Shown: positions 22,901-57,835 of the stretch, one piece after another
Position numbering within the stretch: the first letter of the stretch is position 1
Layout: the number at the start of each line of letters is the position of its first letter
Source: Escherichia virus TH47
Direction: 5' to 3' (one strand)
Sequence record: MT446416.1
Length of the DNA stretch: 64,000 bases
Notes under the pieces: generated by a model
Databases searched by the model: none
What the model saw: the letters and a program-made list of their open reading frames with translations, nothing else
Told to the model about the DNA's origin: nothing
Position numbers and translations under genes: made by a program

Positions 22901-23452
22901 TTGATTGACATGTATGTATTAACCAATTCATACAAAACTGAAGTTGATGTATGGTTGAAGAATGGAACACAAGGTAATATGCCTAAGCCTCCAACATCTG
23001 TTGAATTGAAAGACATTTTTAAAGAAGTTGAACAAAAAATAGTCATCAGTGACAGTATTATTTGGCATAGTGCAGAATATCTACCATTATTTGGTGCGAG
23101 TGCTGATGAAGATTATAAAGCAGATTTCAAAGTCGTCAAATTGCCTAACAGTACAATGAGTGATGATGAAATTCGTCAAAATGTCGTAGCACTAACTAAC
23201 GAGTATTTTAATGTTGACAACTGGGATTTTGGTGAAAGTTTCTATTACACAGACTTGTGTACATACATTCACTCCCAATTAGGACGACATATTAGTACTA
23301 TTGTTATCGTAGCTCAAAACCCTAACTCTAAATTTGGCTCACTATTTGAAATCCCTTCACGTTCTGACCAGATTTTCTTAAGTACTGCATCAGTTGATAA
23401 CGTACAGATAGTCAATTCCTTGGCTAAGAGTAACATTAACATTGGTTCATAA
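19991..23452 (+). CDS. Baseplate wedge protein, gp6-like (baseplate J family), enlarged
   Basis: 1153 aa; N-terminal region (FDYDTIRQSMIDYL...LDTISMLGQNLAFRMDLNTRENFLDTATRRASVLKLAKMISYFP) follows gp6/baseplate-J N-terminal pattern; GAGGA RBS located inside the upstream endonuclease gene. Confidence 0.6.
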   Translation: MSQQKRQSNLYAGEDWTQVYESFYKINLTAFDYDTIRQSMIDYLRTTYPDSFNDWIENDQFIFILDTISMLGQNLAFRMDLNTRENFLDTATRRASVLKLAKMISYFPRRSYPGRAVAKLTEIKTNQDVRNSFNESLKDKIIRWNDPMDTNWYENFILVMNSSFVSTNQFGNPVKRIDINGVSRHLYRMNTIPMSAPSLPFTATVNGESMTFEVVNPDITAVGVEERHPEPQEQKYIVYQNDGNGFSSPNTGFFVYFVQGTLTYQDFQYNIREENRIQDINVDNINETDVWVQEINEDGIVRTKWTKVPSMESIAYNTVNRQLKTIFAVTTRDKDQITIKYPDSRSGVVPRGTYRVWYRVSNGETYNIKTSEIQNKSVKYTYRTKTQSSYESSTLDIRFTLQYESDRAQSAETIEQIKARAPQMYYTQNRFVNGEDYNIAPLSLGNTVLKSKAINRLYSGQSRFIDINDPTGKYQNTDVFSDDGSMYQEKTQFNKSLQLPTTKTNASIAIDNIQPLIGENAVIQRYQAYPPNTIGIEIQQKWTPEYNSNYATNTYGRIMGATGNVFVNYQVGTLIKFSNAGTTVWASIVSVLDNGYYVLSTSVSSNMQAQEYILQYRTRFNSVEVQAISAMLDKKTDFVIIHDKETTSWLPLEISTDEDTISYNGNEVLVMINIKYTAETWEFYANGVEYVFVGGDKVRFYFVSSKKITDISTGSVQSDKIEILSSNTTSNSNAGLTSNIDFQIYDTIQQENGYLDGSRVVITSENVDSNGIPLEPNQFREIVPNWTGEDSVKYGGILVFQENDDFTISVLSLPNDTFTILDSSWAYTMEQALAETNAYKRSEFVRNNAIRSTTLSGIYSKGSGFMVGFKYDGKYYFIEQTVGNNNDRLNQLIENLTYSDDTTAATPELAFYRAIVNIGTNADANQKLDYYGYKDVTSQYTVKTNARTGIDFHWKHYAPDDNRIDPSRTNLIDMYVLTNSYKTEVDVWLKNGTQGNMPKPPTSVELKDIFKEVEQKIVISDSIIWHSAEYLPLFGASADEDYKADFKVVKLPNSTMSDDEIRQNVVALTNEYFNVDNWDFGESFYYTDLCTYIHSQLGRHISTIVIVAQNPNSKFGSLFEIPSRSDQIFLSTASVDNVQIVNSLAKSNINIGS

Positions 23453-23496: not shown

Positions 23497-23532
23497 AATC
23501 AAATGAATGAACGAATTATATGGAGTCCAAAA

Positions 23533-26500
23533 ATGACTAATAATTTTAAGTTTCAACCTACACAGATGGCTGAAGCAGTACAGAAGAAGCTTTTCATAAA
23601 AAGATTGCCTGAGTGGATGCAAGGCTTAGAAGATATTCAGAAAGTCAGTGATGATGTTATCCAACAATGGTTTAATCCGGCTGAAAACGAATTAGTTGAC
23701 GGCTACATTGGTGACATGGGTTCTCCGGCAGCAGCAGGGAACATCTTCTTACACGAGTCAACAGTCGCACGTCAACTATATCAGTTGTCCACTGCGTATG
23801 TCTCAAGAAATAATGACTCCAGCATTCGTTCAATTCAATTTTATGATGATCTAGTTGGCTATATGAATCATTACGGTGCACTAACCGAAAATGAAAGCCG
23901 TTTGTTTAATGGTAAGTTCTATTCATGGACCCCACCAATTAACCCAAATAAAATGAACAACTACAGTTCATACCTATGGGATTCCAAGAATAGCTATAAT
24001 ATCACAACTCCAGATTATATTGTTATGGAACGTGGTGCAGAAAATGGTAACACTTGGTCACTACAAAACTTCTGGTACACATTAGGTGAAACTTTAGAAG
24101 ATGGTACTATCCTAACTGAAGAACTAATGCAAGATTCCCGTTTTGTTCGTGCTCGTGCACCAATTATCGAATACAATAAAAATATCGAACTAATGAACTA
24201 CGGTACTAAATTCCGTGGAACAGTTGATTTGTTCTCTGATATTATTAAACCAGAAGATATCGTACAAAAAGATATTAACAGCGGTATACGTATCGATGGT
24301 ATTATTCCACAAGATGGTATGCGTATACTTTTCACCAGTATTGGTAACAATGGTGAAAACAACAGAATTTATAAAGTATATGTTAAACGTATGCAAGATG
24401 GAACACGTGTGTATGGTCTAGCATTAGATCCAGACGAAGAATCTGAAAGCCGTCCGAGTGGTGAACCACAAGATGGTGACGTAGTTCTTATTATCAAAGG
24501 TAATGAATTTGGTAACAGTTCCATGTATTGGAACGGTTCTCATTGGATTCAAGCACAGTCTAAAACTTCTGTGAACGTATTTCCACAATTCCAATTGTAT
24601 GACCGTAATGGTGTTAAACTAAACAACACTACTACCTATCCATCAAGTACTTTTACTGGTTCTTCACTATTTGGTTTTAAAATTAACTATAATTATGCAA
24701 CTGATAGCGTTTATGGTTATAACATTGAACTAGGTGATTACAATTATTACACATATGAGAATTTCCTACAATCAACTCGTTATACTTACGAGCATTTGGG
24801 TGTGGAAGTTGAAATTGATGGACTATATTACTATAACGTAATTGGTGAAGGTAATACAATGAACCTAGAAACTGATTGGGTTCGTAGTACTGAATACTCC
24901 AAACAATATGTTAAACAAACTCCACAGGTTGAACGTACAGTAATGTTTCGCGTGTTCAGTACTGTTTATGACATGGAAAGTTTCAAAGATCCAGTTGAAG
25001 GAATGTATGCTTATGTAATTGAAGTTGATAGAACATATCAATATTACAAAGCAGAACGTGAAACATATCTTGATTGGCATGTTATCGTTGGTGATGGTGT
25101 ACAAAGCGTTAAGTACAATCACACATTTGAATTGGCACAAAAAGTACTAGATAATTCTGATGATATTATTGAACTAGTTGTTGATGGTGTGGAAATAAAA
25201 GAATACACCAAAACTGTAGTTAATAATCAAGTACAAAGTATTACAATTGATAGCTCTGTTGATTTGGATGAAGATTCTGTTGTACAAATCAGAACTTATA
25301 GTAGCACTATCACTCCAAATAAAGAATTGGGTGCATATGAAGTTCCAATTAACCTACAAAATAACCCATATAATTCAAACATTGAATACATCAACCAAGG
25401 TGATTACACCCAGCACTTCCAAGATATTATTCAAAAGAATATTACATCTGGTTCTGCTGATGACTTTAACAATTACGAAGAACGTTTGGCTTCTGGTTTG
25501 GTTAATAATGGTGTAGGCACTAAAATTATTCAAAACGAAGCGTCCATGTTACCACTAATGGCACATACCGCTAATGAAGATATTGATTTGTTTGAATCAA
25601 TCATGTTTATGCAAGCAGAATACTTCCGCTTCATTAACAAGTTCAACACTCAAATGCTTCGTTTGTATGAAGAAGATCCAAGTGCTTTTCTTGGTAATAG
25701 TGCATCAAACATCGTAGATGCGATTCTAACAGCTATTAATATGGGACGTGATAGTACATTCCCATTCTACTATGACAACGTTGCAAGCACTGCTGGGTTT
25801 ATTCGTGCATTTGTCCCACCAACTCCACAGTTCTTGGGTATTTTGCAAGCTTATACACCACAAAAAGCAACATTCTTAACTGCTGGTAGTAAATCTAGCT
25901 GGTATAATATCAGTCATACTGGTATTATTTCAAAAGCATACCGTGTTATCAATGGTGTTGATAAAATGGATGACGTTGTTTTCGAATTGGAGAATCGTAT
26001 CTTTAATAGTATCGATCTTACTTTCAAGGATATTGATTATAAACCAGTACTAAACAGTGAAGATCTATTCCCAACTCCATATTTCACTGGTACTGATTAT
26101 AGTGCAGAAGAAAAGAAAACTCTATTGCTACGTGGTTACATTAACTTCACAGCAACCAATGGTATTAGTAACAGTACTCATGATTATGATGCAAATAACT
26201 GGAGAACTTGGAACTATACTGGTAGTTATTATGTTGTTGATGGTCAACGTACTGAAATTCCTGCTCGTGGTTCATGGCGTGCAATCTATACTGACCAATA
26301 CGGCACATATCGTCCAGCAACCCATCCGTGGGAAATGATGGGCTTCTCTCAACGTCCTACTTGGTGGAACCAAGAATACGAACCAACCGCAGTTCAAGTT
26401 GGTGAACGTGAAGGTGATGTTGTTTATGTGTATGAAGCACTAGTAATGAATGAAAGTGGTGATTTGGTCCCAAGTGGTTTGTGGGATATTGATGGTACTA

Positions 26501-29500
26501 TCGGTGACAGCAGTACTGGTACTATTTTGTCAGGTGAACGCCGTGGTCAATATGACAAATACAAGCGTTTCGGTGTACAGCCATTTAAAATCACTAAGAC
26601 TGGCGAGAAAACCAGCACTGGTATTGATATTTGTGAAGTTGAGTATATTGCACCTGAAGTTTTAGGTCTTGTTAGTGGTAATTTGGATCATCGTGCAGAA
26701 CCGTGGGCTTATGGTGACATGGGTGACATGGAATTCACTTACATGAACACTGCGATGTTTGCTTATGACCAAATGCTTCTTCTATACAAAGCAAAACCAG
26801 CACAGTTTGCAAACTATTACTGGGATACCCGTAATGATAACCTTAAACCAGTTTATACTGATGGTTCACAGTTCCTTTATGGTGAAACCCGTAAGCGTCT
26901 AAACTTTGACAGTACTACATTAGTACATGGTGAGAAAAATACCCGTACTATCGGTTATCAAATGTTTGTTAGTGACTATTTGATGTATCAGAACAAGAAC
27001 ATTACCACCAAATACGGTGACGTTGTTCGTTCTTCTTATGTCAATGTCGCTCACAAAATTGGTGGCTTTACTAAAGCAGACCAATTGACATTCACTGCTA
27101 AATCTTTCGGTTTGATTTCACAAGAAAACCAAACTATCGGTCTAGTTCGTTCCAATAACATTCTCGATGAGCAAATGAGTGCAGTAAAAATTACTTGGAA
27201 TGGTAGTGCATATCAAATTGATGGTTATGATTTAGTTGGTGCTAAATTTAAATATAAAATTCCAGTTAAAAATGGAAGAAAAGTAACTCTTAAATTGGAA
27301 GACAGAACTGTTGTTCATTACAATGAATGGAAATCTGAAGGTACATTAGAATATGGTAAAATATTCAATACATACCAAGAAGTTTATACTTTCATTTGTG
27401 GATATGGTGAATATCTAAAAGAACATGGCTGGATTTTTGAAGATGTAAATGATAGTGGTGCTCAACAAGACTGGACAACTATTGCTAAAGACTTTGTTAT
27501 TTGGAGTCAGAATAGTTTAAGTACTGGCGAGTTCATCTCCTGTACTCCAAGTGCAGCTAATGCTAAATTTGGTGCAGATTTTGGTTCAGTTCAATCTGTT
27601 ACACAGAACAGTGGTGGTGTTTGGTCATTACTTGATGATGAAAACCAAGGTATCCGTCAATATGAAATCGAAACTTCGCGTATCGGTAACGTATTCACAG
27701 TGAGAACTACATCCGAATCACAAAAACGTATGGCGTTGATTCGTTTGAGCCTAAGTTCATATGAACACGCAGTTGTTTTTGATGATAAAACTATCTTTGG
27801 TGATTTCATTTACCAACCAACTTATGGTGCTATTCAAGAATTGATTAAAATGTATGGTTACATTACTGGGTCATGGACTGGTCGCCTACAAGCACCTGGT
27901 TTCATTATCCTAGAAGCAGGAACTTTACCATCATTTGAAAAATTAGTAACTGATTTTGATTTATATTATAATAGTGAAACTCCTGTGAGTGATGTTCAGC
28001 TTCAAGAGTTATCAAATCACTTGATTGGCTATCAAACTCGTGATTATCTACAACGTATGATTAGTAGTGATGTTAGTCGTGTTGATTTCTATAAAGGATT
28101 CATTCATGACAAAGGTACTAACCAAGTAATGGAAAAAGTACTACGTGTTTCTAAATCTTACGACACTGATGAATATAAAGCACTTCAGGAATGGGCATTT
28201 AAGATTGGTACTTATGGTAATATCAATGGTAAGAAAAATCTACAATTTAAACTAATCAATGACCAATTTAAACAACAACCACAGATGGTTTCGTTTGATG
28301 TTAATGCTACATCAAATGGTACTGGTAATGGTATTGTTTATTACGGTGAACAAGGGGTTGACCCACGCTGGATTACTCGCCCAAATGGTAAGTTTTCATT
28401 CCCAATGCGTAGTGGAAGAAGTGAGAACATTCAACTTCCAGACATTGGCCCTGTAACACTAGATGAAATTTCATATGTTACTAAAGATTTCAGTACTGCA
28501 TATAATGATCGTATCAATTATATGAATAACAGTGGTGAAATCCCAGATTCTGTATGGATGTTTAAAGATGGTAATGATTTGTGGAATATTTTCGAACTAG
28601 TAGACACTGAAGTTGAGATGCTCTCTATCGTTCCAATTGAAAATACCGATGTATATGCAGAACAATTCTGTAAAGTAACTCTAAGTGATGATATCCCACT
28701 AAATGATGGTGATTATTATTACTTTGTTGATGAAACTAACTTTATGCCAGATACATTGACTATAGAAAGTCAATATTATACTGCGGGTAATGACCCTAGA
28801 GTTATGGTAGTTCCGTTTGACACTTCAATCACTATTGACTTCACTGATCCTGATACTCGCCCACGCTTGTATCGTTATGTTTCACGATTCAGTACTGAAG
28901 AGATGCGTCAGGAATACATTGACAGAAAATATAGTTTTAAAGCTCCACAAAGTACTTTGTTTGACCGCCCAACCACATATGATGAGCGTACTAACATTAC
29001 TGCGTTGTACCTAAACGTGTTTGACCCAATCAACGGTGTTATTCCTGGTGCAGCGATGCAGAACGTTACCTACACATCTCCAGTTGACCCAGCACAATAC
29101 AACAGCAATGGTGAATTGATTCAAGCATGGGGTGCTGATAAAGTTGGTCAGGTTTGGTGGAACACCAGCACTGCTTTCTACTTAGATTACACTCGTGCAA
29201 TCTATGATGCTGATGGTAATGTGGATGTTGATGCAACAAATGAATATAAACGTTATAACTGGGGCAGATTGCTACCGCACAGTACTGTTGATGTTCTTGA
29301 ATGGGTATGTTCGCCAGTTGAACCATATAACTGGGACAAATACTGCAAAGACGTTGCTAACAAAAATAAAAACAACACTATGTACCTACCAAGCGGAACC
29401 GCATTGGAAGATAATTATAGTACGTTCTTAGAATATGATAGCACAACTGATACTTATGTTACAAAATACTATTTCTGGGTGCGTGATACAATCTATGTGC

Positions 29501-32500
29501 CACCATTGCATTCCAGAACTAAATCTTGTACTGATATTGCTCGTATTATTAAAGAACCAGCACAGCTTAACATTCCTTGGTTTGCACCAATCAATGAAAG
29601 CTCGTTCATTCTAAGTAATATGCAATTTGAAGTCAACGATGACACAAGTATTTTAACTGTTTCTTATTACATGGATAATACTGAAGTTATTAAACATGAC
29701 CAGTATCAATTATGTAAAGAAGGTGATAGCTATAACTTCAATCCATCAATCTGGACTTCTATGTGGAATTCTATGATTGGTCAAGAAACTACTGAATCAG
29801 GAACTGTTATTGATTTACTATATCCTTTAGTACCAAACGGTTTAGGTTCTAATAAGACTTGGTTCCAAGATGTAATTGAAGCTCGTAGAAACTTTGTAGA
29901 AAGTGCAAATAACTATTATCGCTCACAGAATATAACAACTAACACTGTTCTAATGGACGAAGTGTTTAATGTTAAAACTACTGAAGTTAACCCGAATGAA
30001 GTATCATATCGTGTACTAACTTACAATAGTGAATTAGTCATTGCACCTGAAAGTGACAAGTTCAAAGAAAACGACGCAGTACTAGTAAGTACTAGTGGTG
30101 TATTACCTAACCCACTATCAACTAGCTCTGTATATTTTGTGCATATTGATGCTAATGGTTATATTCATCTAATGAATAGCCCATCAAGTGCTGGTAGTGT
30201 GGTTACCATTACATTGGAAAACCGTGGTGAAGGTCAACAGAAAATGATTAAACAATCAGACTATGTTGAAGCACTAGGAACTTCATTGGACATGACCCAG
30301 TACTGGTCACTAGCAGATTGGTATGATATTGGCTACGATAAAAATACTGCATATACACAAGAATCCAGCCTAGAAGATGCAAACACTAAGAACTATCAAG
30401 TTGGTGACATTATCAGAATTACAGATGTTGATGGCATCTGGACATTGTACATTAAAGCACAATCACGTGATTCAGTTTACTGGAAAGCAATTGGTCGTGA
30501 AAATAGTACAGTTGAATTGAATGATATGTTATACGCTGACTATACAGTTCGTGATGCTAATGGTTCGTTGAGTAATCGTGAGATTAACGTTCGTAAAGCA
30601 CTAGCTTTATTGAAGAACTCATTCGATTTACATCAGAGTGAAATTGTGTTTGATATGGTTAAGTATGTTCACGTAGAACAAAGCGTTGTTGATTGGGTAT
30701 TCAAAACATCTTACATTTATATTGTAGGTTTAGAACAATCATTAGTACAGAACTATTCCAACGACAACTTGATTAATCAAATCGTTGAGTACTTTGAAGA
30801 AGTTAAACCATATAGAACTAAGATTCGTTCCCAGATTGAACAGAAAACTTCAGATGATGATTTAATTAAAGGTTTGTGTAATGATTTAGATCCTAATGGC
30901 TATATATTTGCAGATGGGACTTGGGTTAAAACGGAAAAAGACATTTGGGATTATGAATATGCTCAATTCAATGAGGTAACTCAACGTTGGGAGCAAGTTG
31001 GTGAATTGCCAAGTGATTTCGTAACACCTAATCGCCGTTTCCAAGAAATTGATGTTATCATGCACTACGACAACACTCAATGTAAACCAAATGATAATTT
31101 GGCAAGTGTTGATGTATTGGAAGAAGTGAATAAAAAATATCAATCTAATGCACAAGATGTTGTTAGTGATTTTGAATTACAACGTTACAAATATACATTC
31201 CCAGAATACAGTGATGAAGATTTCGACCTATTGGTTGCTTATCAGATGCAATTGTATTACCCAGAATTGAACGTAACTCTAGGGATTGCTTATGGTGTTA
31301 ACCAATGGTATGCAGAACATGCAGATGATTTGGTAGCAACCGCAGAATTCACAGAAACGTTGAATCGTGTATATAAAGAATCAACACAGAATGAAATGTT
31401 TAATGACGTAAATCATTATGTTCAGTATAACACACTCTCTAACCGTTTGAAATTGTACACAGGTGCAGATGATGAAGTAATTCATGATGAGGTTGGATGT
31501 GGATTTAGTGGGTTAACTTACGATGATAATCCAAGCACCAGACTACCGTTTGGTTACGCATCCAGTACTGATTATAACTTTGGTTACTTTGAAGTTAGTA
31601 GTGAGTTGTATAATAAGTATGTTTCTTTAATTAAAGAAAACAATACTACTGCAACTGATGATGAAGTTAGAATTATACTTGAAGTTGAATATGGTGTTTA
31701 TTCATATCGCCATGTAGATGAAGATGGAAATCAACGATTCTACAATGACGCAATTCATGTATTGTCCGGTATGCGTGGTTTGTATGACAAAGATGCTACC
31801 GACCATTATGAAAAGGCTGAAGAAATACTAAGTAGAATGCCTATTGATATTCATGCATTTACTATGATGCCACGAAAATATGTTTATGTTAATGTTAATG
31901 GTGTATACGAGAGTATCCCAGATGACCAAAGCATTGATGATTTCATGGAAGACAAATTCATAACTGACGGTCAACTAGTTCAATTGGCAGAAATAAATCT
32001 TGATGACTTACCTCTTGATAGAAATAACCCAATGTACAGTGATTATCAGCACATCCTAGATAGCATCACCAATGCTAAGTACTACGATGATATGAATGCA
32101 TTTGATAACCTAGCACTTGAATCACAAACTTCCGAGTTAAAATGGGAAGTTGAAGGTGACGAAGTAGATCCGTACATAATCGACATTTCTGATATTAACC
32201 CATCAGGAAGAAAGATTGGTCAGATTCGCTTCACAGTTGATGGTTATGGATTCAATAGTGTTTCACGAGTTCAATTGAGAGACAATAGTAGATATAAAAC
32301 TGAAGGTATGGTTATTATCAACCCTTATAAAACAACAGAAGCAATTGTTAGTATTCCTTCTTACGCTAAGATTGAAAATGATATTAGTAAATCATACAGT
32401 AAGTATGATGAAAAATACTTCTATAAAATTAAATCAATTGTTAGTGATACAGAAGCTGAAGTAATTGACAATACCCTATCTGATGGTGATAAGGTTATGA

Positions 32501-33501
32501 TATTCACAACTGATGGTGAAGATTATGTGAGATACCAAAACAATGCATGGGAAACCATCTTGAGTGTATCAAAAATCAAAACTGACACCACACCAACCTT
32601 GTACACAGTAAGAAACACTGCGAACGGAACTGTAGAACTACTAGATAGTACTGGAGTTGTACTTCGTTATGATAACATCACTAAACAACAGAATGAACCA
32701 GCAATACCTCTAGCATTGAACATCGTTCGTATTAGAACCTTTGCTGATCCAGAATTCTTGGTTGATGGTGTTAAGTTGTATGAAACAAATAGAAATTATG
32801 CTATCGACGCAATGAACTATGAAGTATTCTACGACACAACACTATACGGTGGTTCTTATAATGATGGAATTACACCAGATGACGTTGATGTTTGGGTAGT
32901 GTCTAACGAGATATTTGAAGTTGATGGTGTTACCATTGATAACGGATATAACTTACCAATTACTGGTGCAGGTGTTCTTAGTGAGTTAGTGAGAACAAAA
33001 ATGACTGATAGTGTGGAAATTAACGTGTTCGAGTATGATGTTGGTATTATTCAACCTGTACTGAATGCTGAAGGGGTATGGGAATATGCATATCCACTAG
33101 TTAGTGATACATATATTGGTGTAGTTGGTGGAACAGTAACTAACATTACTGCTATCAGTGAAGAAAATGCTACTTATGTTTCACAACCAGATTCAGTTAG
33201 TCCATATAGTGTTACTAATAATGTTCTATCTGGTGCTGGTGCAAGTATGAATGATATTATTTCTCTTGGTTTTGAAAAAGTTGAAGTACGATTTGCAAAT
33301 AACTTACTCCGTGGGGTAATGTATAGTGCAGAACACGACTTTAAAGAGAATGTGACATATTCATTTAATGGATTGAACTTAGGTAAAGTTAATTTACTAA
33401 AACGTTATAGTGTTAACAGTTATCCAATCGAACTATCGGTTTACTCCGATAGTTTGCAAATAAGTGGTAATGACATTAAAAATCTATTAGAAGTTAAATA
33501 A
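23533..33501 (+). CDS. Giant (3322-aa) virion structural protein in baseplate position (gp7-like position; function unknown)
   Basis: Uninterrupted ORF of about 10 kb; start placed at ATG 23533 (GGAG RBS) rather than 23503; follows gp6-like gene; typical phage structural-protein composition. Confidence 0.5.
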   Translation: MTNNFKFQPTQMAEAVQKKLFIKRLPEWMQGLEDIQKVSDDVIQQWFNPAENELVDGYIGDMGSPAAAGNIFLHESTVARQLYQLSTAYVSRNNDSSIRSIQFYDDLVGYMNHYGALTENESRLFNGKFYSWTPPINPNKMNNYSSYLWDSKNSYNITTPDYIVMERGAENGNTWSLQNFWYTLGETLEDGTILTEELMQDSRFVRARAPIIEYNKNIELMNYGTKFRGTVDLFSDIIKPEDIVQKDINSGIRIDGIIPQDGMRILFTSIGNNGENNRIYKVYVKRMQDGTRVYGLALDPDEESESRPSGEPQDGDVVLIIKGNEFGNSSMYWNGSHWIQAQSKTSVNVFPQFQLYDRNGVKLNNTTTYPSSTFTGSSLFGFKINYNYATDSVYGYNIELGDYNYYTYENFLQSTRYTYEHLGVEVEIDGLYYYNVIGEGNTMNLETDWVRSTEYSKQYVKQTPQVERTVMFRVFSTVYDMESFKDPVEGMYAYVIEVDRTYQYYKAERETYLDWHVIVGDGVQSVKYNHTFELAQKVLDNSDDIIELVVDGVEIKEYTKTVVNNQVQSITIDSSVDLDEDSVVQIRTYSSTITPNKELGAYEVPINLQNNPYNSNIEYINQGDYTQHFQDIIQKNITSGSADDFNNYEERLASGLVNNGVGTKIIQNEASMLPLMAHTANEDIDLFESIMFMQAEYFRFINKFNTQMLRLYEEDPSAFLGNSASNIVDAILTAINMGRDSTFPFYYDNVASTAGFIRAFVPPTPQFLGILQAYTPQKATFLTAGSKSSWYNISHTGIISKAYRVINGVDKMDDVVFELENRIFNSIDLTFKDIDYKPVLNSEDLFPTPYFTGTDYSAEEKKTLLLRGYINFTATNGISNSTHDYDANNWRTWNYTGSYYVVDGQRTEIPARGSWRAIYTDQYGTYRPATHPWEMMGFSQRPTWWNQEYEPTAVQVGEREGDVVYVYEALVMNESGDLVPSGLWDIDGTIGDSSTGTILSGERRGQYDKYKRFGVQPFKITKTGEKTSTGIDICEVEYIAPEVLGLVSGNLDHRAEPWAYGDMGDMEFTYMNTAMFAYDQMLLLYKAKPAQFANYYWDTRNDNLKPVYTDGSQFLYGETRKRLNFDSTTLVHGEKNTRTIGYQMFVSDYLMYQNKNITTKYGDVVRSSYVNVAHKIGGFTKADQLTFTAKSFGLISQENQTIGLVRSNNILDEQMSAVKITWNGSAYQIDGYDLVGAKFKYKIPVKNGRKVTLKLEDRTVVHYNEWKSEGTLEYGKIFNTYQEVYTFICGYGEYLKEHGWIFEDVNDSGAQQDWTTIAKDFVIWSQNSLSTGEFISCTPSAANAKFGADFGSVQSVTQNSGGVWSLLDDENQGIRQYEIETSRIGNVFTVRTTSESQKRMALIRLSLSSYEHAVVFDDKTIFGDFIYQPTYGAIQELIKMYGYITGSWTGRLQAPGFIILEAGTLPSFEKLVTDFDLYYNSETPVSDVQLQELSNHLIGYQTRDYLQRMISSDVSRVDFYKGFIHDKGTNQVMEKVLRVSKSYDTDEYKALQEWAFKIGTYGNINGKKNLQFKLINDQFKQQPQMVSFDVNATSNGTGNGIVYYGEQGVDPRWITRPNGKFSFPMRSGRSENIQLPDIGPVTLDEISYVTKDFSTAYNDRINYMNNSGEIPDSVWMFKDGNDLWNIFELVDTEVEMLSIVPIENTDVYAEQFCKVTLSDDIPLNDGDYYYFVDETNFMPDTLTIESQYYTAGNDPRVMVVPFDTSITIDFTDPDTRPRLYRYVSRFSTEEMRQEYIDRKYSFKAPQSTLFDRPTTYDERTNITALYLNVFDPINGVIPGAAMQNVTYTSPVDPAQYNSNGELIQAWGADKVGQVWWNTSTAFYLDYTRAIYDADGNVDVDATNEYKRYNWGRLLPHSTVDVLEWVCSPVEPYNWDKYCKDVANKNKNNTMYLPSGTALEDNYSTFLEYDSTTDTYVTKYYFWVRDTIYVPPLHSRTKSCTDIARIIKEPAQLNIPWFAPINESSFILSNMQFEVNDDTSILTVSYYMDNTEVIKHDQYQLCKEGDSYNFNPSIWTSMWNSMIGQETTESGTVIDLLYPLVPNGLGSNKTWFQDVIEARRNFVESANNYYRSQNITTNTVLMDEVFNVKTTEVNPNEVSYRVLTYNSELVIAPESDKFKENDAVLVSTSGVLPNPLSTSSVYFVHIDANGYIHLMNSPSSAGSVVTITLENRGEGQQKMIKQSDYVEALGTSLDMTQYWSLADWYDIGYDKNTAYTQESSLEDANTKNYQVGDIIRITDVDGIWTLYIKAQSRDSVYWKAIGRENSTVELNDMLYADYTVRDANGSLSNREINVRKALALLKNSFDLHQSEIVFDMVKYVHVEQSVVDWVFKTSYIYIVGLEQSLVQNYSNDNLINQIVEYFEEVKPYRTKIRSQIEQKTSDDDLIKGLCNDLDPNGYIFADGTWVKTEKDIWDYEYAQFNEVTQRWEQVGELPSDFVTPNRRFQEIDVIMHYDNTQCKPNDNLASVDVLEEVNKKYQSNAQDVVSDFELQRYKYTFPEYSDEDFDLLVAYQMQLYYPELNVTLGIAYGVNQWYAEHADDLVATAEFTETLNRVYKESTQNEMFNDVNHYVQYNTLSNRLKLYTGADDEVIHDEVGCGFSGLTYDDNPSTRLPFGYASSTDYNFGYFEVSSELYNKYVSLIKENNTTATDDEVRIILEVEYGVYSYRHVDEDGNQRFYNDAIHVLSGMRGLYDKDATDHYEKAEEILSRMPIDIHAFTMMPRKYVYVNVNGVYESIPDDQSIDDFMEDKFITDGQLVQLAEINLDDLPLDRNNPMYSDYQHILDSITNAKYYDDMNAFDNLALESQTSELKWEVEGDEVDPYIIDISDINPSGRKIGQIRFTVDGYGFNSVSRVQLRDNSRYKTEGMVIINPYKTTEAIVSIPSYAKIENDISKSYSKYDEKYFYKIKSIVSDTEAEVIDNTLSDGDKVMIFTTDGEDYVRYQNNAWETILSVSKIKTDTTPTLYTVRNTANGTVELLDSTGVVLRYDNITKQQNEPAIPLALNIVRIRTFADPEFLVDGVKLYETNRNYAIDAMNYEVFYDTTLYGGSYNDGITPDDVDVWVVSNEIFEVDGVTIDNGYNLPITGAGVLSELVRTKMTDSVEINVFEYDVGIIQPVLNAEGVWEYAYPLVSDTYIGVVGGTVTNITAISEENATYVSQPDSVSPYSVTNNVLSGAGASMNDIISLGFEKVEVRFANNLLRGVMYSAEHDFKENVTYSFNGLNLGKVNLLKRYSVNSYPIELSVYSDSLQISGNDIKNLLEVK

Positions 33502-33507
33502 CAAAAA

Positions 33508-33536
33508 GGAGAGCAAATGCTCTCCTTTTCTTTTTT
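33508..33536. terminator. Bidirectional rho-independent terminator between convergent genes
   Basis: GGAGAGC-aaat-GCTCTCC hairpin with A-run upstream and T-run downstream. Confidence 0.65.
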
Positions 33537-35823
33537 ACGCAATAACTTTTTCTACTGCTTTAGTTCGTTTAGGTTTGATTGCCAATTTACCATCAATCAC
33601 ATCAAACGTTACGTTACCACCATTAACCAGAGAACCACACAACATCTCTTTAGCTAGTGGGACACGGATGTTTTGCTCAATAGTGCGTTTCATTGGACGT
33701 GCACCCATTCCAACTTTAACACCATTTGTTGCCAACCACTCACGAGCCGCTTTGGTCAGTGAAACTTTAACTTTGCGGTCTTTGATTTGTTCATTCAAAC
33801 TTCCCATGAACTTATCAATGATGCTGTCAATCGCTTCGCTGCTTAGGTCTTTGAATGTCACAATACTATCGATACGGTTGATGAATTCAGGTGGCAAGAA
33901 TGCTTTAATCGCTTTATCTTGTGCTGTATCACTACCGCTCATCCCAATACTACGCTTGGTTGAATCTGCTGCACCAAGGTTAGTCGTCATAATAACAGTT
34001 ACGTTATTGAAGTAAACAGTTTTACCTTGTGAACCAGTCAAACGTCCTTCGTCCAGAACCTGTAGGAAGGTTAGTAGTACTTTACGATCAGCTTTTTCGA
34101 TTTCATCGAGCAACAGTACTGCATTCGGGAACTGCTCAATCTTGTCGAGTAGCAGACCGTTACCAGAATCGTGACCAACATAGCCTGGAGGTGAACCAAT
34201 CAGTTTAGCAACAGTATGTTCCTGTGAAAACTCGGACATATCGAAACGAATCAGTTCAGAACCAGTTGCATCAGCCAGTGCTTTGGTAATTTCAGTTTTA
34301 CCAGTACCAGATGGCCCAACAAACATGAATGCACCTTGAACACTTGATTTATCACGCAGACCAGCACGAGCTACCATCACGTTATCAACCAGTTTCTGTA
34401 CTGCTTCTTCTTGACCGTATACACGAGAACGGAGTGCATCTGGTAGATTACGCATACGTTCACTTTCAGTGCAAGCAACCACGTTAATATCTAGGTTTGC
34501 GATACCTGCAACAACTTCTTGAATCAGTGCAACAGTGATGATGTTATCATCAGTTTCACGAGAACGTACTTTCGCTGCCGCCGCATCCATTAGGTCGATT
34601 GCTTTGTCAGGGAAGTGTTTGTTCTTCAGGAACTTATCACTTAGTGTAATAACTGCATCCATTGCTTCAGTACTGAACTCTACGTTATGGAAAGTTTCAT
34701 AAGTAGATTTCAAACCATTCACAATCGCACGGGTTTCATCAATTGATGGCTCAACTACATCAATTTTCATGAAACGACGAGTTAGTGCACTATCTTTTTC
34801 GATGTTTTTACGATATTCATCGTAAGTTGTTGCACCGATTACACGAATCTCACCACGAGATAGTGCAGGTTTGAGCATGTTGCTCATATCCATAGAACCG
34901 TTGCTTGCTGAACCAGCACCAACCATAATATGGATTTCATCGATGAACACAATAGTGTTTTCACGTTTCTTCAGTTCTTTTAGTAGGTTATCGATACGTT
35001 CTTCGAACTCACCACGGTACTTAGTACCAGCAGTCAGTGCACCTACGTTCAGAGACAGAATTTCAACATCTTTAAGATGCTCTGGTACTTCACCATCAGC
35101 GATTGCCTGTGCTAGACCATCAATGATTTGAGTTTTACCAACACCAGCTTCACCAGTCAGGATGGCATTCTTCTTAGTCTTACGGGCCAGAGTTTCAATC
35201 AGTGCAGAAAGCTCTTTCTGGCGACCAATCATTGGGTCAAGTTTACCTTCTTTTGCAAGTGCTGTTAGGTTAGTGGTGTAATCTTCTAAACCTTTTTGTT
35301 TGGACGATGGTTGCTGTTGTGCCACTTTTTTCTCCCCAGTTGGCTCATCACTAATGCTTTGAAGGTTGATTCCGTTGTCGATTGCTTCTACGTGCTTCTG
35401 TAGAGTTCGTGCTGCTTCAGTACAAGTGATACCCTCTTCACGCAATGCTGCTTCTAGTGCAGTATTTGGGAAGGACAAACACTCAAACAGTACAAAATAA
35501 GCATCAATTGAGAAATCATCACGTTTAAGTTGCTCAATTACTGATTTCTTAGAAAGTTCCTGAACTACACGGTTCACGAGAAGTGATGTGCGGTTCGCTT
35601 CATCACCATCAGCACTTTTAGGTGCATGTGGGAATGTTGTATTCTTCAGATATGCAATCAAACGACCGTGTAGGTTGTCTGCATCGATGTTCATATCTTC
35701 AAATACTGCTTTGATGCTATCGATTGTCAGTACTGTAGCACTTAGATGGTCAATAGTCAAGAAGGTATGACCCAGAGAAGTTGCCAGTTCGTCGCTTTTT
35801 TTGAATAATTGGGTAAGATTCAT
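33535..35823 (-). CDS. ClpA-like double-AAA+ unfoldase (Clp ATPase family)
   Basis: 762 aa from ATG 35823 (AGGAGA RBS; ORF-track start is GTG); N-domain begins like ClpA; two Walker A motifs GEAGVGKT and GPSGTGKT, Walker B FIDEIH and LLDEIEKA, GARPMKR sensor; no long ClpB M-domain; KRSIGM at the position of the ClpA IGL ClpP-docking loop. Confidence 0.85.
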   Translation of the reverse strand: MNLTQLFKKSDELATSLGHTFLTIDHLSATVLTIDSIKAVFEDMNIDADNLHGRLIAYLKNTTFPHAPKSADGDEANRTSLLVNRVVQELSKKSVIEQLKRDDFSIDAYFVLFECLSFPNTALEAALREEGITCTEAARTLQKHVEAIDNGINLQSISDEPTGEKKVAQQQPSSKQKGLEDYTTNLTALAKEGKLDPMIGRQKELSALIETLARKTKKNAILTGEAGVGKTQIIDGLAQAIADGEVPEHLKDVEILSLNVGALTAGTKYRGEFEERIDNLLKELKKRENTIVFIDEIHIMVGAGSASNGSMDMSNMLKPALSRGEIRVIGATTYDEYRKNIEKDSALTRRFMKIDVVEPSIDETRAIVNGLKSTYETFHNVEFSTEAMDAVITLSDKFLKNKHFPDKAIDLMDAAAAKVRSRETDDNIITVALIQEVVAGIANLDINVVACTESERMRNLPDALRSRVYGQEEAVQKLVDNVMVARAGLRDKSSVQGAFMFVGPSGTGKTEITKALADATGSELIRFDMSEFSQEHTVAKLIGSPPGYVGHDSGNGLLLDKIEQFPNAVLLLDEIEKADRKVLLTFLQVLDEGRLTGSQGKTVYFNNVTVIMTTNLGAADSTKRSIGMSGSDTAQDKAIKAFLPPEFINRIDSIVTFKDLSSEAIDSIIDKFMGSLNEQIKDRKVKVSLTKAAREWLATNGVKVGMGARPMKRTIEQNIRVPLAKEMLCGSLVNGGNVTFDVIDGKLAIKPKRTKAVEKVIA

Positions 35824-35861
35824 GTATTCTCCTAAATGAGTAGTCACTCTAATTAATAAAC

Positions 35862-35889
35862 ATTATATCACATTCTTTGCGTTTGTCAA
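35862..35889 (-). promoter_or_regulatory. Near-consensus sigma70-type promoter (TTGACA-N16-TGaTATAAT) for ClpA-like gene
   Basis: Minus strand reads gTTGACAaacgcaaagaatgtgaTATAATg; about 30 nt upstream of ATG 35823; same motif recurs twice at 59336-59457. Confidence 0.5.
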
Positions 35890-35931
35890 CAAGGTAAATA
35901 AAGATATACCCGATTTATTTTGGAGACAAAC

Positions 35932-37428
35932 ATGACATACAGAATGTGGAAAAAAGGTAGAACCAATGATTACAAGTTCATTGACTCTGCCATAGCAGAA
36001 CAATACAACATCGGTGGTGTTGACATGTGGCTTTATGCCTATGTCGGACCAAAACAAGTCGCTGATAACACTGATTTATCATATGGCGGTGATTATTATG
36101 GTTCAGATAGTACCGTTGTGTCAAGCATTGGTGATTTAATTTTTGGTGACACTCCAAGTCGTAACTATAATCTCGAAGCTATCACCTTAAGTTGCGTCTA
36201 CCAAGTCCAAGAAGCAACTCCTGACTTGAAAATCCCAGGATTGTTCTTCAACTTTAACACTATGGACATCACAATTCATTATAACACAATGATTCAGCGT
36301 TTGGGAAGAAAAATTATGCCAGGTGACGTAATCGAACTCCCTAACTTACGTGATTTTGATGTACTTGGTAAAGATTCTGGTTTAAATCGCTTCTATGTAG
36401 TACAAGATGGGTTTAGAACATCAGAAGGTTACTCAGTTACATGGCAACATCACATTTACAAACTCCGTGTTAAACCTCTTACTGATTCACCAGAGTATTC
36501 AGACCTTCTAGGTAACAATAACTACCCTGATGACCCAGATGAACCAAACAACGGCAATGGTAATACTGATGATGGCTCTTCAGAGAACAGCAGCTATGGT
36601 AATGAAATGGACATTATGAACCGTATCATTATGCAAGCTGATGATGAAGTACCATACATTCATTTTACTAACGAACACTTGTTCGATGACAGACCAGATA
36701 CCGTTGATTTGTCTAAGTATATGCTAAATGGATACGAATTACCAGAGGAACCAGCAAATAAAATGTATTTCCTCAAGAAAACTTACCCAGTACTGAAAGA
36801 ACTATCTAATGATACATGGATTTCTGTAGAAGTCAAGCGTGGAACAATCTTTCCTCGCAAACCGATGGATGGTGACTTCTTCTTTAAAGAAAACGAGGCT
36901 GATGTCACTGGCTTCTCATTGTATCAATACGATAAATCTGCCAAAAAGTGGCTAAATTGTGATGTTGAGTATACTACAGAAAGCACACCACCACAAGGGG
37001 TTGATGATTTTTATATTGAATACAAAGAACCACACATTTATCAGTACTTAAATGGTAAATGGGGAGAACCAGAAGTAACTTACGTTAATGACCCATTCAC
37101 TTCTAATAGTGTTTATGGAAATATCGATTCACAACAAGATTATCGTCCTAAGATTCCTCCAGCACGAGGTACAGTTCCTGAAGGTAATATGTTCCCAAGT
37201 GATGCAGTTGATGGTGATTACTACTATCGTACCGATTATACACCAGTAACCCTATGGGAATACAGTGCATCCAAGAATTCTTGGGTGATTTTCGATTACG
37301 GTGGTAGAAAACCGTGGGAAGGTGCAGATCTTGCTCTAACAGAATTTGTTAATAGCCCGAACCGTGTACCATTACATGATGCAGTTAAACCTAATACAGC
37401 GTATCGTATACATAAGGATTCAGAATGA
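35932..37428 (+). CDS. Putative neck/virion protein (gp13/gp14-like position)
   Basis: ORF-track start 35920 is TTG; ATG 35932 with GGAGA RBS; directly upstream of and overlapping gp15-like gene. Confidence 0.35.
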   Translation: MTYRMWKKGRTNDYKFIDSAIAEQYNIGGVDMWLYAYVGPKQVADNTDLSYGGDYYGSDSTVVSSIGDLIFGDTPSRNYNLEAITLSCVYQVQEATPDLKIPGLFFNFNTMDITIHYNTMIQRLGRKIMPGDVIELPNLRDFDVLGKDSGLNRFYVVQDGFRTSEGYSVTWQHHIYKLRVKPLTDSPEYSDLLGNNNYPDDPDEPNNGNGNTDDGSSENSSYGNEMDIMNRIIMQADDEVPYIHFTNEHLFDDRPDTVDLSKYMLNGYELPEEPANKMYFLKKTYPVLKELSNDTWISVEVKRGTIFPRKPMDGDFFFKENEADVTGFSLYQYDKSAKKWLNCDVEYTTESTPPQGVDDFYIEYKEPHIYQYLNGKWGEPEVTYVNDPFTSNSVYGNIDSQQDYRPKIPPARGTVPEGNMFPSDAVDGDYYYRTDYTPVTLWEYSASKNSWVIFDYGGRKPWEGADLALTEFVNSPNRVPLHDAVKPNTAYRIHKDSE

Positions 37429-38768
37429 AAATAGATTATTATTATGATGGTCAATTTCGTCGAGTACTGAAACATCTTATCAGAGTGTTTGGTGAATTTC
37501 AAGTACAAAATGGTGTTGATGCTGACGGAAAACCAAAATATAAGAAAGTTCCTTGCCGCTATGCAGATATTTCACGTATGGCAGCAGCAATTATTAATGG
37601 TAACAGTGAGAACGTGCTTCCAACAGCACCAATCATGACCATTAGTGTAAACCAACTTAAACTAGATCGCAAGTCAGTTCGTTCAAACGCAAATGAAACA
37701 TTAGTTATGGGGACTAACAAGTCCCCTGGAATTAACGAATATACTAAAGACTTAGATAAACAGTATAAAGTAACTCGTCATAACCCAGTACCTTGGACAT
37801 TTACGTTTGATGTTAATATTTGGGTTACACAAACACAAACTAAAATGGAACTATTTGAGCAAATTTCAACATTGTTTGCTCCTAGTATTCAATTACAACT
37901 CTCCGAGAACCCACTGGATTGGACATCATTGAGTGATGTGGAGTTGATTGACTGTCAATTTACTACTCGTGGTTTCCCACAAGGAACCGATAGTGATTTG
38001 GATATAATGGTATTGACATTTGAAACCACAATTTGGTTCTCTTTGCCAGCTATTGTTGAGAAACCAAAACTTATCCAACAAATCACCACCAATATTAAAG
38101 GTGCTCGTGATGAACTTGATTTTGAAATTGGTAATTACTCGGATATCATTACTGATGTATTCACACCAAAGAACTTATGTATTAAAGTTGATGAAATAAC
38201 AAACTCTGAACTTAATATCCCAGATACTTACCAACTCACTCTTGTTAGTCAATCACTATCAGAAACATCACCAAATGGTGGGATTTATTCATGGGAAAAA
38301 TACCTTAAGTACTTGGACCCAGAATATGAAGACAAGACTGTAGGTATTAAATTCCAACAAGCTATAGAAGAGGATAACCCACTAAAAGGACATATCTCTT
38401 CATTTGGGGAAGGGGCTGATTCTAACAAGATTGTAGTTCAGCTTGATAATAGTAATTATACTGTTGATTATACAATACATGGATTCATTAGTAAAGACTC
38501 TTTGTTATATAACGCACTACCTGAACAATATTATGTAAATAATAGCATACATAACATCATTTACAAAGAGACTGAAATCCCAGCGAACTATTTGTTTAAA
38601 ATTACCAATGATGGAGCAGAACTTATTGAGCCATCGCGAGTACACCACTATGTTTATAATATGGAAGATAGTGGATATTATAGATATAATGACAAATTCA
38701 AATGGCATAAGAGTATTATGTCAGTATATCGTCAGGGATATTGGAAAATAACTTTCACTGACAAATAA
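37425..38768 (+). CDS. Tail sheath stabiliser/tail terminator, gp15-like, with long C-terminal extension
   Basis: N-terminus MKIDYYYDGQFRRVLKHL resembles T4 gp15 MFGYFYNSSFRRYATLMG; PWTFTFDVNIWV resembles gp15 EWSLTFEVNGWM; 447 aa versus about 270 in T4. Confidence 0.65.
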   Translation: MKIDYYYDGQFRRVLKHLIRVFGEFQVQNGVDADGKPKYKKVPCRYADISRMAAAIINGNSENVLPTAPIMTISVNQLKLDRKSVRSNANETLVMGTNKSPGINEYTKDLDKQYKVTRHNPVPWTFTFDVNIWVTQTQTKMELFEQISTLFAPSIQLQLSENPLDWTSLSDVELIDCQFTTRGFPQGTDSDLDIMVLTFETTIWFSLPAIVEKPKLIQQITTNIKGARDELDFEIGNYSDIITDVFTPKNLCIKVDEITNSELNIPDTYQLTLVSQSLSETSPNGGIYSWEKYLKYLDPEYEDKTVGIKFQQAIEEDNPLKGHISSFGEGADSNKIVVQLDNSNYTVDYTIHGFISKDSLLYNALPEQYYVNNSIHNIIYKETEIPANYLFKITNDGAELIEPSRVHHYVYNMEDSGYYRYNDKFKWHKSIMSVYRQGYWKITFTDK

Positions 38769-56350: not shown

Positions 56351-57760
56351 TTAGCTACGTTGACGCTTTTTGTCAGCTTCATATTCGTAGTGTACAGTTT
56401 CGCCAAATGGTGCTTGTTTGTTAGGATTACTGTGGATAACAAACAGTGTCTTACAGTAATCAGGATCACCCCATGACTGCCACGGCTCACCATCGGTAAA
56501 CATAATAAGCTGTTTAGGCTTATAGTTGTCATGCTTCATATGAACCCATACTGCTTCAAAGTCAGTACCACCACCACCTTTCACTGGATATTCGAGAATC
56601 TTACTCTCTTCACCAGTTTTGTAATCTTTAACAGTATAAACTTCAGTATCGAACGTCATGATACGGATTTTAAATTGTTTAAACTGCTTAGTGATACCCA
56701 GTACTTCACTGATGAAATCACGGAGCATATCTTCAGAGATAGAACCGGATGCATCTAGTGCAATTGCAATATCAATATCATCATCTGGTTTCATGCCTGG
56801 GAAGATTGGATTCCCGTAGAATGAACCAGTACTACCAAAACCAGCACCCCATGAACGACGATTAGGACTTTGATAAGTTGCGTCAGACTTCAACCAGCTA
56901 CGCAGTGTGCGGTGAAGTTTGGAACGCCAGTCAATCTTAGGTTCTTTGAAGTTGTTAATCATACGTGCGATTTCAGCAGGAGTACCACCTGCACGAGCAG
57001 CATTCATCATTGCTGTTTTGAAATCATCCATATAATCACGTTTTTGTTTATCACTTGAACCACCTTCTTGACCTTCTTGTGGAACGTCATGCTGGTCGAT
57101 TGTTGTACCTTTGCCTTTACCATCTTTGATATCACCAAAAGTACCGCGTGATTTACCTTCACCCTCACCACTACCAGCCTGTGGATTTCCTTCACCTTCC
57201 CCGTCTTGATCCTGTTTATCTTCTTCTTCGAGAATGTTATAAATCTCTTCAGCAGTCATACCATCGTACTTTTTATCGTACAGCCATTGGCTTTGGATTT
57301 TACCAATTTTATCACGAACAAGAATCTGGTTAATTGCATAGTCAGCAGCACGGTTATAACGCTGCGGGTCACGCATACCACGACGCAAGAAGTGGTCATA
57401 TGCACAGTGAAGAATCTCATGACAGATAACTGCAATCAGGTTTTCATCAGTCAAACCTTCTGTCATTTCTTTAAGTTGTTCTTCAGTTACTTCAGGATGT
57501 TTCTCACGAATTGCTTCTTCGTATGCGGACTTTTTGGATTGGTCCTGAATACCCATGATGAATTCTACGTTGTAGAATAAATGCTTACCATCTACTGCCA
57601 AAGTACGACACCATGTATTGTTTGCAACTGGACGCAGACGAGAAGCCAGTACACCAAAGAATGGGAATGTTAGCATTAAAGATGTGCGAGCTAAGATCAG
57701 ACGATCTTGACATTCTTTCTGGAGAGCCGGAGTAACATCACTGAAACGTTTATCTGACAT
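56351..57760 (-). CDS. HExxH metallopeptidase-like / von Willebrand factor A (vWA) domain protein, partner of MoxR-like ATPase
   Basis: 469 aa; N-terminal AVICHEILHCAYDH (HExxH); C-terminal vWA with MIDAS DASGS and MFTDGEP; immediately downstream of AAA+ ATPase on same strand. Confidence 0.8.
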   Translation of the reverse strand: MSDKRFSDVTPALQKECQDRLILARTSLMLTFPFFGVLASRLRPVANNTWCRTLAVDGKHLFYNVEFIMGIQDQSKKSAYEEAIREKHPEVTEEQLKEMTEGLTDENLIAVICHEILHCAYDHFLRRGMRDPQRYNRAADYAINQILVRDKIGKIQSQWLYDKKYDGMTAEEIYNILEEEDKQDQDGEGEGNPQAGSGEGEGKSRGTFGDIKDGKGKGTTIDQHDVPQEGQEGGSSDKQKRDYMDDFKTAMMNAARAGGTPAEIARMINNFKEPKIDWRSKLHRTLRSWLKSDATYQSPNRRSWGAGFGSTGSFYGNPIFPGMKPDDDIDIAIALDASGSISEDMLRDFISEVLGITKQFKQFKIRIMTFDTEVYTVKDYKTGEESKILEYPVKGGGGTDFEAVWVHMKHDNYKPKQLIMFTDGEPWQSWGDPDYCKTLFVIHSNPNKQAPFGETVHYEYEADKKRQRS

Positions 57761-57792
57761 TTGTATTTCCTCGTTTAGTTAAGATAAAAGAA

Positions 57793-57810: not shown

Positions 57811-57835
57811 TCCTTGTCAACACTCTTTTTAATTA

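Follow-up and report, generated by a model that had tools for sequence, protein, structure and literature searches.

Does an AAA+ unfoldase encoded by a phage feed a peptidase, and if so, whose? This question is raised by a clpA-like gene in a 64,000-nucleotide stretch of the genome of Escherichia virus TH47 (record MT446416.1; the whole stretch is hereafter called the window, and coordinates refer to it unless another genome is named). The initial annotation of this locus described a ClpA-like unfoldase with a possible ClpP-docking tripeptide, IGM, and proposed from the lack of clpP in the window that the protein hijacks the ClpP of the host or else acts as a stand-alone remodeller. With confidence slightly better than even, we regard this ClpA as the unfolding motor of a ClpAP(S) protease that the phage itself encodes. 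This reading is preferred because the motor motifs are complete, the docking loop is retained and ClpP strictly co-occurs with ClpA, and further because ClpA is the sole docking-competent unfoldase detected, shares a promoter type with the phage clpP and is apparently absent from virions. The gene itself is already known: it is annotated in dozens of relatives, including phage fEgEco12, and is ordinary for Rak2-like phages.

A divergent member of the ClpA family

The minus-strand open reading frame (ORF) extends over 33535..35847 and encodes 770 aa if started at GTG; the ATG at 35823 is the biologically sensible start and yields exactly 762 aa. The interval first assigned to the gene, 33535-35889, contains this ORF, but its upper end is the first base of the -35 hexamer of the clpA promoter and thus lies outside the coding sequence. 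The description of a 762-aa protein with two complete AAA+ modules is borne out by the ORF, by the Pfam matches (AAA in D1, AAA_lid_9, AAA_2 in D2, and ClpB_D2-small) and by intact motifs. D1 contains Walker A (GEAGVGKT, residues 224-231), Walker B (FIDEIH, 293-298), the pore loop KYRG (268-271) and the arginine fingers RRF (349-351), and D2 contains Walker A (GPSGTGKT, 503-510), Walker B (LLLDEI, 570-575), the pore loop GYVG (547-550), sensor-1 N615, the arginine finger R650 and sensor-2 GARP (707-710). The Walker, pore-loop, sensor and arginine-finger residues are invariant across 38 diverse homologues.

The top NCBIfam match is TIGR02639 (ClpA), which aligns end to end with 752 bits from residue 2 onwards (counted from the ATG; residue 10 if counted from the GTG), and PHROG 4871 (“ATP-dependent protease”) matches residues 2-756 over profile positions 11-761 of 764 with 1020 bits. 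Equivalog status in NCBIfam would require higher scores than those obtained (752 vs 993 bits for TIGR02639, 650 vs 1350 bits for NF008263). On these matches, the window protein is a divergent member of the ClpA family and no equivalog of bacterial ClpA. E. coli ClpA (PDB 1ksf; 758 aa) aligns in a single unbroken stretch (query 25-749, ClpA 20-734; E = 2e-178; 43% identity), whereas ClpB, ClpC, ClpE, ClpV and Hsp104 align in two stretches only; therefore, the M-domain is absent, and no long coiled coil is seen in the AlphaFold2 (AF2) model. A ClpB- or ClpC-type identity is accordingly rejected, and the earlier assignment to the ClpA rather than the ClpB type holds. The AF2 model (mean pLDDT 79) matches the E. 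coli ClpA chains of ClpAP complexes with target-normalised TM scores of at most 0.90 and root-mean-square deviations of 3.0-3.9 Å.

The proposed ClpA-type N-domain is confirmed, albeit weakly: in searches with the isolated N-terminus, Pfam Clp_N matches the first repeat only (21.5 bits; threshold, 20.7), and the AF2 model places eight helices within residues 3-148. This is the fastest-evolving folded domain, with 20% identity to the E. coli protein compared with 47-55% in the large subdomains of D1 and D2; identity in the linker between the N-domain and D1 is 10%.

The nearest complete genome is that of the Asteriusvirus fEgEco12, to which the window aligns over 134,049-202,212 with ~98% nucleotide identity and whose ClpA is 99.9% identical. 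ClpA is 99.7-99.9% identical in the Escherichia phages EC.P1, Ecwhy_1, fEgEco12, WPEC3/5, Turkey3 and BF17, 92.6% in the 121Q/PBECO4 group, 75% in Klebsiella RaK2, 69% in Salmonella SE_PL and 61% in Cronobacter GAP32. Altogether, intact clpA ORFs occur in >110 sequence clusters (90% identity) at 54-100% identity, in phages infecting Escherichia, Klebsiella, Salmonella, Cronobacter, Erwinia, Serratia, Yersinia and Xanthomonas. The ClpAs of Rak2-like phages (121Q gp581, RaK2_00069, GAP32, SE_PL, pEa_SNUABM; PHROG 4871), annotated as ClpA-like or ATP-dependent Clp protease subunit, belong to the same family (54-99.9% identity) and share synteny, promoter and terminator with the window gene; there is no substantive difference between them and the window protein, the loop-tip tripeptide alone varying by lineage.

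The missed equivalog cut-off and the strong divergence of the N-domain could also be taken as signs of a decaying or non-functional acquisition of a bacterial clpA. The conservation data effectively refute this possibility, given the intact ORF in all these clusters, the invariant catalytic residues and the conserved promoter and terminator (see below).

The gene is referred to in two papers, one by Attai et al. and one by Iyer et al. (2021); the latter authors list ClpA, ClpX, ClpP and ClpS in jumbo phages and suggest translocase or assembly roles (PMC7824862). The Clp genes are not discussed in the RaK2, fEgEco12 and Sharanji papers, and Clp is unmentioned in the main text of the PA5oct omics paper.

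Phage-encoded ClpP and ClpS-like proteins as candidate partners

The window lacks clpP, as the initial annotation stated: tblastn searches with ClpP and ClpS of E. coli and PA5oct and with E. coli ClpX returned nothing better than E = 2.4, except for the match of the ClpX query to D2 of ClpA itself. The conclusion drawn from this absence, that the phage depends on the ClpP of the host, fails once the search is extended to the whole genome of fEgEco12, which encodes its own intact ClpP and a ClpS-like protein outside the region that corresponds to the window. ClpP is the 231-aa product of g207 (80,543-81,238), with a Pfam CLP_protease match at E = 1.3e-41; it shares 36% of its residues with E. 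coli ClpP and has Ser97, His122 and Asp171 in place, three residues that are invariant in 65/65 ClpPs of the phage clade. A T4 gp21-like prohead protease, g348, is encoded separately in fEgEco12; therefore, g207 is not the head-maturation enzyme, and its identification as a prohead protease was rejected.

ClpP accompanies ClpA in essentially every Rak2-like phage. At a threshold of at least 60% identity, 70 phage records contain ClpA and 69 contain ClpP, with matching identity bands and the same named phages; the two co-occur in Asteriusvirus, RaK2/K64-1, CBB, GAP32, XbC2, EJP2, SE_PL/Munch, pEa_SNUABM, Serratia BF and fHe-Yen9. ClpX was absent in a search of the whole fEgEco12 genome, and no docking-competent unfoldase other than ClpA was detected there with ClpA, ClpX and FtsH queries (HslU was not searched).

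The candidate adaptor, g414 of fEgEco12 (251,795-252,340; ~82 kb from clpA), is a divergent ClpS-like protein whose N-terminus is extended by ~70 aa. It is 38% identical to GAP32_314, matches phrog_15940 and shows a sub-threshold match to Pfam ClpS (E = 0.014). Both g414 and GAP32_314 are located directly behind a gene for translation initiation factor IF-3 (g413 and GAP32_313, respectively), with 13 nt separating the pair in fEgEco12. In the ClpS-like core, the residues DD and T that form part of the N-degron pocket in E. coli ClpS are retained, as is the equivalent of E79, but the equivalents of H66 and K84 are lost. The clpS-clpA operon arrangement of proteobacteria was not found in the window, where no clpS lies directly upstream of clpA.

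The fEgEco12 genome also encodes two homologues of HslV-family (Ntn-hydrolase) peptidases, g216 and g518 (phrog_1040; E = 2.6e-22 and 2.8e-6), two copies of GroES and, in g214, another CLP_protease-like ORF that is very divergent (20.6 bits), a set of folding and proteolysis genes that is unusually rich for a phage.

The docking loop and its tip

The IGM tripeptide (residues 626-628) occupies the position predicted by the initial annotation, matching column for column I617-G618-L619 of E. coli ClpA, which insert into the ClpP pocket in ClpAP cryo-EM structures (10.1101/820209). The loop is flexible in the AF2 model (pLDDT <50 at residues 623-630). Its conservation was analysed in 111 phage ClpAs that are 54-100% identical to the window protein and, for comparison, in 147 cellular ClpA representatives with mutual identity under 50%, the variability of each position being expressed as its percentile rank among the alignment columns of the AAA+ core. 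In 111/111 phage proteins the loop, of ~25 residues, has a near-constant length and invariant flanks (T604, N606, G608, A631, L636, P638, E639 and F640 are near-invariant in the clade), and S616 and the basic residues preceding the tip are kept; compared with the E. coli loop, it is ~3-4 residues shorter.

The tip itself is variable, whereas a ClpP-docking tip is expected to follow the pattern [LIVM]-G-[FL]. In order of falling frequency, the phage proteins carry MGM, IGM, IGV, LGM, IGA, LGL, MSM, IGG and MNM, along with rarer forms including VGF, IGF and IGL. The third position (619) has a variability of 2.24 bits, in the 93rd percentile, compared with the 23rd percentile in cellular ClpAs, where Phe is found in 128 of the 147 sequences, Leu in 7 and Met in a single one. 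The first position (617) ranks in the 86th percentile against the 50th in the cellular set, and the central Gly (618) is kept in 83% of the phage proteins compared with 145/147 cellular ones (7th percentile). The ClpPs of E. coli, Salmonella and Klebsiella are nearly identical. The tip is nevertheless IGM in the window lineage, LGL in 121Q, IGV in RaK2 and MNM in SE_PL, and it is LGM in GAP32; thus, among the phages of Escherichia, Salmonella and Klebsiella, it does not seem to be tuned to the ClpP of the host.

These observations bear directly on the possibility that the phage ClpA docks exclusively on E. coli ClpP14, competing with the ClpX and ClpA of the host and redirecting proteolysis. 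The tip is hydrophobic and stands in the exact position of IGL, the Ser and basic residues before it are retained, host ClpP is available from the start of infection, and the clpA promoter is of host type. However, the phage encodes its own ClpP, the tip varies as described, Met is nearly unknown at the third position in cellular ClpAs, and the loop is short; in ClpX, changes of loop length lower the affinity for ClpP, and conservative tip changes likewise weaken binding (PMC7112951). Exclusive hijacking of host ClpP hence appears quite improbable.

A two-sided change of the ClpA-ClpP interface

The preferred peptidase partner, the phage ClpP, departs from cellular ClpPs at the surface that receives the loop. 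Pocket contacts were taken from a ClpAP structure, and residues were counted over ungapped, well-anchored stretches in 65 clade ClpPs and 44 cellular-like ones. L114, a Leu in 42/44 cellular-like proteins, is replaced by Gly in 61/65 clade members; position 82, aromatic (F/Y) in 39/44, is N, S, G or C in 61/65; Y60 is Thr in 56/65 and F112 is Leu in 49/65 of the clade ClpPs. Y62, I/V90 and M92 are mostly retained. In addition, the clade ClpPs (g207 and 65 homologues, P0271-P0336) possess a conserved C-terminal extension of ~25 aa, with the consensus ...G.RNE.G.Y.VKRR.G..EWV, which starts right after the pocket-lining strand and is absent from the ClpPs of PA5oct and Atu_ph07 and from cellular ClpPs.

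An apparent loss of Arg192, a ClpP residue critical for ClpX binding (PMC7112951), was withdrawn: a one-residue shift aligns [R/K/Q]-N (ILGPRN here) with R192-N193 of E. coli, and the same shift renders L189 alignment-ambiguous.

More canonical pockets pair with an x-G-F tip of ClpA, namely in Atu_ph07, in PA5oct and on a contig carrying P0110 and P0336, which is consistent with co-evolution of ClpA and ClpP, the independent contrasts being very few. In the sample of 13 Rak2-like genomes and 2 outgroup phages, these contrasts are too few to support residue-level co-variation between tip and pocket, and the trend is one of clades only; the ClpP pocket of 121Q, whose tip is LGL, is identical to that of the window lineage with its IGM tip.

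It is possible, if doubtful, that the ClpA and ClpP of Rak2-like jumbo phages form an insulated (orthogonal) pair, owing to alterations on both sides of the docking interface. On the ClpA side, x-G-M/V/L/A would have taken the place of the near-universal x-G-F at the tip; on the ClpP side, L114 would have been replaced by Gly, the aromatic residue at 82 by Asn or Ser and Y60 by Thr, and the C-terminal tail gained. The phage ClpP would then be closed to the ClpX and ClpA of the host, and the phage ClpA would ignore host ClpP. The change of the interface is a modest new observation on a gene that was known before.

A stand-alone transcription unit among structural genes

The placement of clpA on the opposite strand among structural genes, as first described, is confirmed by the neighbours listed in Table 1: the gene is antisense to the surrounding genes of the tail/baseplate module. 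It is a monocistronic stand-alone unit with its own promoter and terminator, the latter a GC-rich hairpin with a T-run behind it, located four bases past the clpA stop codon. The GC content at the locus is 41%, compared with ~35-36% in the flanks.

Perfect extended -10 sigma70 sites number only three in the window, and one of these serves clpA. An extended -10 promoter also precedes clpA in 121Q-like phages, RaK2, SE_PL, GAP32 and pEa47, with 10-12 of 12 consensus positions and the TG in all five lineages; a hairpin and T-run follow the stop codon in 4/4 of these lineages for which downstream sequence was read. The clpP promoter of fEgEco12 reads TAGACA-16-TGaTATAAT, TGTGATATAAT and the 16-nt spacing being common to the clpA and clpP promoters, and TTGACA-17-TATAAT stands ahead of the IF-3/clpS-like pair. 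In the whole fEgEco12 genome, only 48 sites combine at least 11/12 matches to the sigma70 consensus with a TG extended -10; these cluster in 0-50 kb and 275-375 kb, and only about 11 fall in the central ~225 kb, the clpA and clpP promoters among them. The site-rich regions of fEgEco12 hold many small unannotated ORFs and include an apparent terminal duplication. Taken together, these features and the virion data given below suggest that clpA, although located in the structural module, behaves as a non-structural gene driven by host RNA polymerase, and we infer that it is expressed early.

The remaining two perfect sites in the window are arranged in tandem, at 59457 and 59363, ahead of a pair of genes at 56351-59164 (minus strand) that encodes first a 442-aa AAA ATPase (phrog_1297) and then a 469-aa protein with DUF2201_N, a putative metallopeptidase domain, and VWA-like domains. 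The pair resembles the MoxR/VWA type; in fEgEco12 the homologue of the 469-aa protein is annotated as “HNH endonuclease”, and the ATPase homologue gp265c was detected in phAPEC6 virions by mass spectrometry (PMC7247149).

Virion proteomes informative for the clpA neighbourhood are those of phAPEC6 and CBB. In phAPEC6, the baseplate wedge protein gp244, the 382-kDa gp245 (the homologue of the 3332-aa protein) and gp248 (51.7 kDa) were detected, and gp246 and gp247 were not (PMC7247149). By gene order and size, gp246 is ClpA, which thus appears to be no virion component.

The location of clpA invites the alternative that the protein is a stand-alone unfoldase or chaperone that remodels or unfolds proteins without a peptidase; it might, for example, assist the folding or assembly of very large tail or baseplate proteins, including the neighbouring 3332-aa virion protein, or take host complexes apart. 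RaK2, SE_PL, GAP32 and 121Q-like phages all show the order gp15-like gene/~500-aa gene/opposite-strand clpA/~3300-aa gene (the ~3300-aa gene is always convergent with clpA in the compared lineages). In PA5oct, ClpA adjoins a 6.7-kb tail gene and DnaJ, and therefore a role as a chaperone in assembly is hinted at; DnaJ likewise lies beside ClpA in Atu_ph07. The high variability of the tip, including the replacement of Gly in 17% of the phage proteins, suggests a relaxed docking constraint, and translocase or assembly functions are those that Iyer et al. proposed. This alternative is nonetheless unlikely in our assessment: the docking loop, absent in ClpB and Hsp104, is kept with its invariant flanks throughout the clade, a catalytically intact phage ClpP strictly co-occurs, no other docking-competent unfoldase was found that could serve this ClpP, and the gene opposes its structural neighbours and has a host-type promoter of a class concentrated in the terminal genome regions. 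The stand-alone remodeller offered as the second option by the initial annotation is thus not favoured.

Table 1. Features of the clpA locus and its neighbourhood in the window.
Feature	Coordinates	Strand	Basis or remark
Baseplate wedge gene	19991-23452		Neighbour of clpA
3332-aa virion protein	23503-33501	+	Convergent with clpA; no Pfam match
Intrinsic terminator hairpin, bidirectional	33503..33530		Common to clpA and the convergent 3332-aa gene
clpA-like coding sequence, 762 aa + stop	33535..35823	-	Pfam, NCBIfam, PDB and PHROG matches; AF2 model
D2 AAA+ module + D2-small, residues ~450-752	33568..34476	-	Pfam; motif alignment
ClpP-docking loop region of D2, residues ~616-633	33925..33978	-	Aligned to E. 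coli ClpA 606-637
IGM tripeptide codons, residues 626-628	33940..33948	-	Columns of E. coli I617-G618-L619
D1 AAA+ module, residues ~179-449	34477..35289	-	Pfam; motif alignment
Disordered polar N-to-D1 linker, residues ~151-178	35290..35373	-	pLDDT <50 at 156-176
N-domain, residues 1-150, Clp_N-type eight-helix bundle	35374..35823	-	Pfam Clp_N; AF2 model
Shine-Dalgarno sequence AGGAG	35829..35833	-	Five bases to ATG; direct sequence reading
sigma70-type promoter TTGACA-16 nt-TATAAT, TG extended -10	35862..35889	-	12/12 consensus matches
502-aa virion structural protein	35920-37428		phrog_11591
T4 gp15-like tail sheath stabiliser	37425-38768		

Comparison with known Clp systems

Among the closest known counterparts is E. 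coli ClpA of ClpAP(S) (PDB 1ksf/1r6b, 6uqe, 6w1z, 7uiv), with which the window protein shares the N-linker-D1-D2 order, the absence of the M-domain, the Walker, pore-loop, sensor and arginine-finger residues, and a D2 helix-loop-helix in the same place. It differs in the tip (IGM rather than IGL), in the shorter loop, in the divergence of the N-domain, in the lack of clpS directly upstream and probably in its partner, which would be the divergent ClpP of the phage and not that of the host. With ClpB, Hsp104 and ClpC it has in common the D1 and D2 AAA+ cores and Clp_N (E-values at the 1e-150 level); these proteins, however, carry a coiled-coil M-domain that the window protein lacks, and ClpB is devoid of the docking loop that the window protein keeps.

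Among jumbo phages, PA5oct (Pseudomonas) and Atu_ph07 (Agrobacterium) possess a ClpA accompanied by a ClpP and a ClpS of their own, as fEgEco12 does with its ClpS-like protein, which supports the assignment of the window ClpA to a phage protease. Their ClpAs are 39-41% identical to the window protein and have canonical IGF tips. The ClpP pocket is essentially canonical in Atu_ph07 and intermediate in PA5oct (aromatic at 82 and 112, Ser at 114). Unlike fEgEco12, both phages possess ClpX, and DnaJ adjoins ClpA; the PA5oct set comprises ClpX, Hsp20, ClpS, FtsH, ClpP, GroES and DnaJ-ClpA, and that of Atu_ph07 ClpA, ClpP, ClpS and ClpX. In the PA5oct record (NC_071039.1, 170000-198000), PHROG-derived RefSeq names label ClpA and ClpX as “porphyrin biosynthesis” and ClpP as “head maturation protease”; the misleading ClpP label also appears in several Asteriusvirus records.

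A putative phage ClpAP(S) protease

On the reading that we favour, host RNA polymerase would transcribe clpA from the consensus sigma70 promoter, with its extended -10, that the gene possesses, and the product, by homology to E. coli ClpA, would form hexamers in which the KYR and GYVG pore loops grip substrates and ATP hydrolysis in both rings threads them into ClpP, docked via the D2 helix-loop-helix with IGM at its tip. The peptidase would most likely be the ClpP of the phage itself, and the divergent ClpS-like protein may serve as an adaptor; the resulting ClpAP(S) would degrade particular proteins of the host or the phage in the course of infection. From the co-occurrence of ClpP and the retained loop, we infer that ClpA and ClpP pair physically.

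Several observations weigh against this scheme. The window protein falls short of the equivalog cut-offs for ClpA, and in fEgEco12 clpP lies ~87 kb away from clpA. Within the clade, the tip varies to an unusual degree, and forms such as IGG, IGA, MSM and MNM seem ill suited to hydrophobic docking; in E. coli ClpX, I268L or F270L alone severely weakens ClpP binding (PMC7112951). The pocket of the phage ClpP, for its part, lacks several of the residues that touch the loop in E. coli ClpAP (L114G, F82S/N, Y60T), so that canonical docking could have been lost rather than re-specified. Synteny with the giant tail protein is kept even in PA5oct, with DnaJ beside ClpA. Finally, no experimental study of any phage ClpA or ClpP was found, a literature search for phage-encoded ClpP being empty.

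The present analysis corrects the premise that the phage has no ClpP and offers a testable hypothesis on the docking interface. An ATP-dependent protease of its own would let the phage reshape the proteome of the infected cell without the Clp network of the host; possible uses include the removal of defence or regulatory proteins, timing of the turnover of its own proteins, and quality control of the giant virion proteins. If real, the insulated pair would be a natural orthogonal AAA+ protease that could inform the study of docking specificity and might provide a degradation module for synthetic biology.

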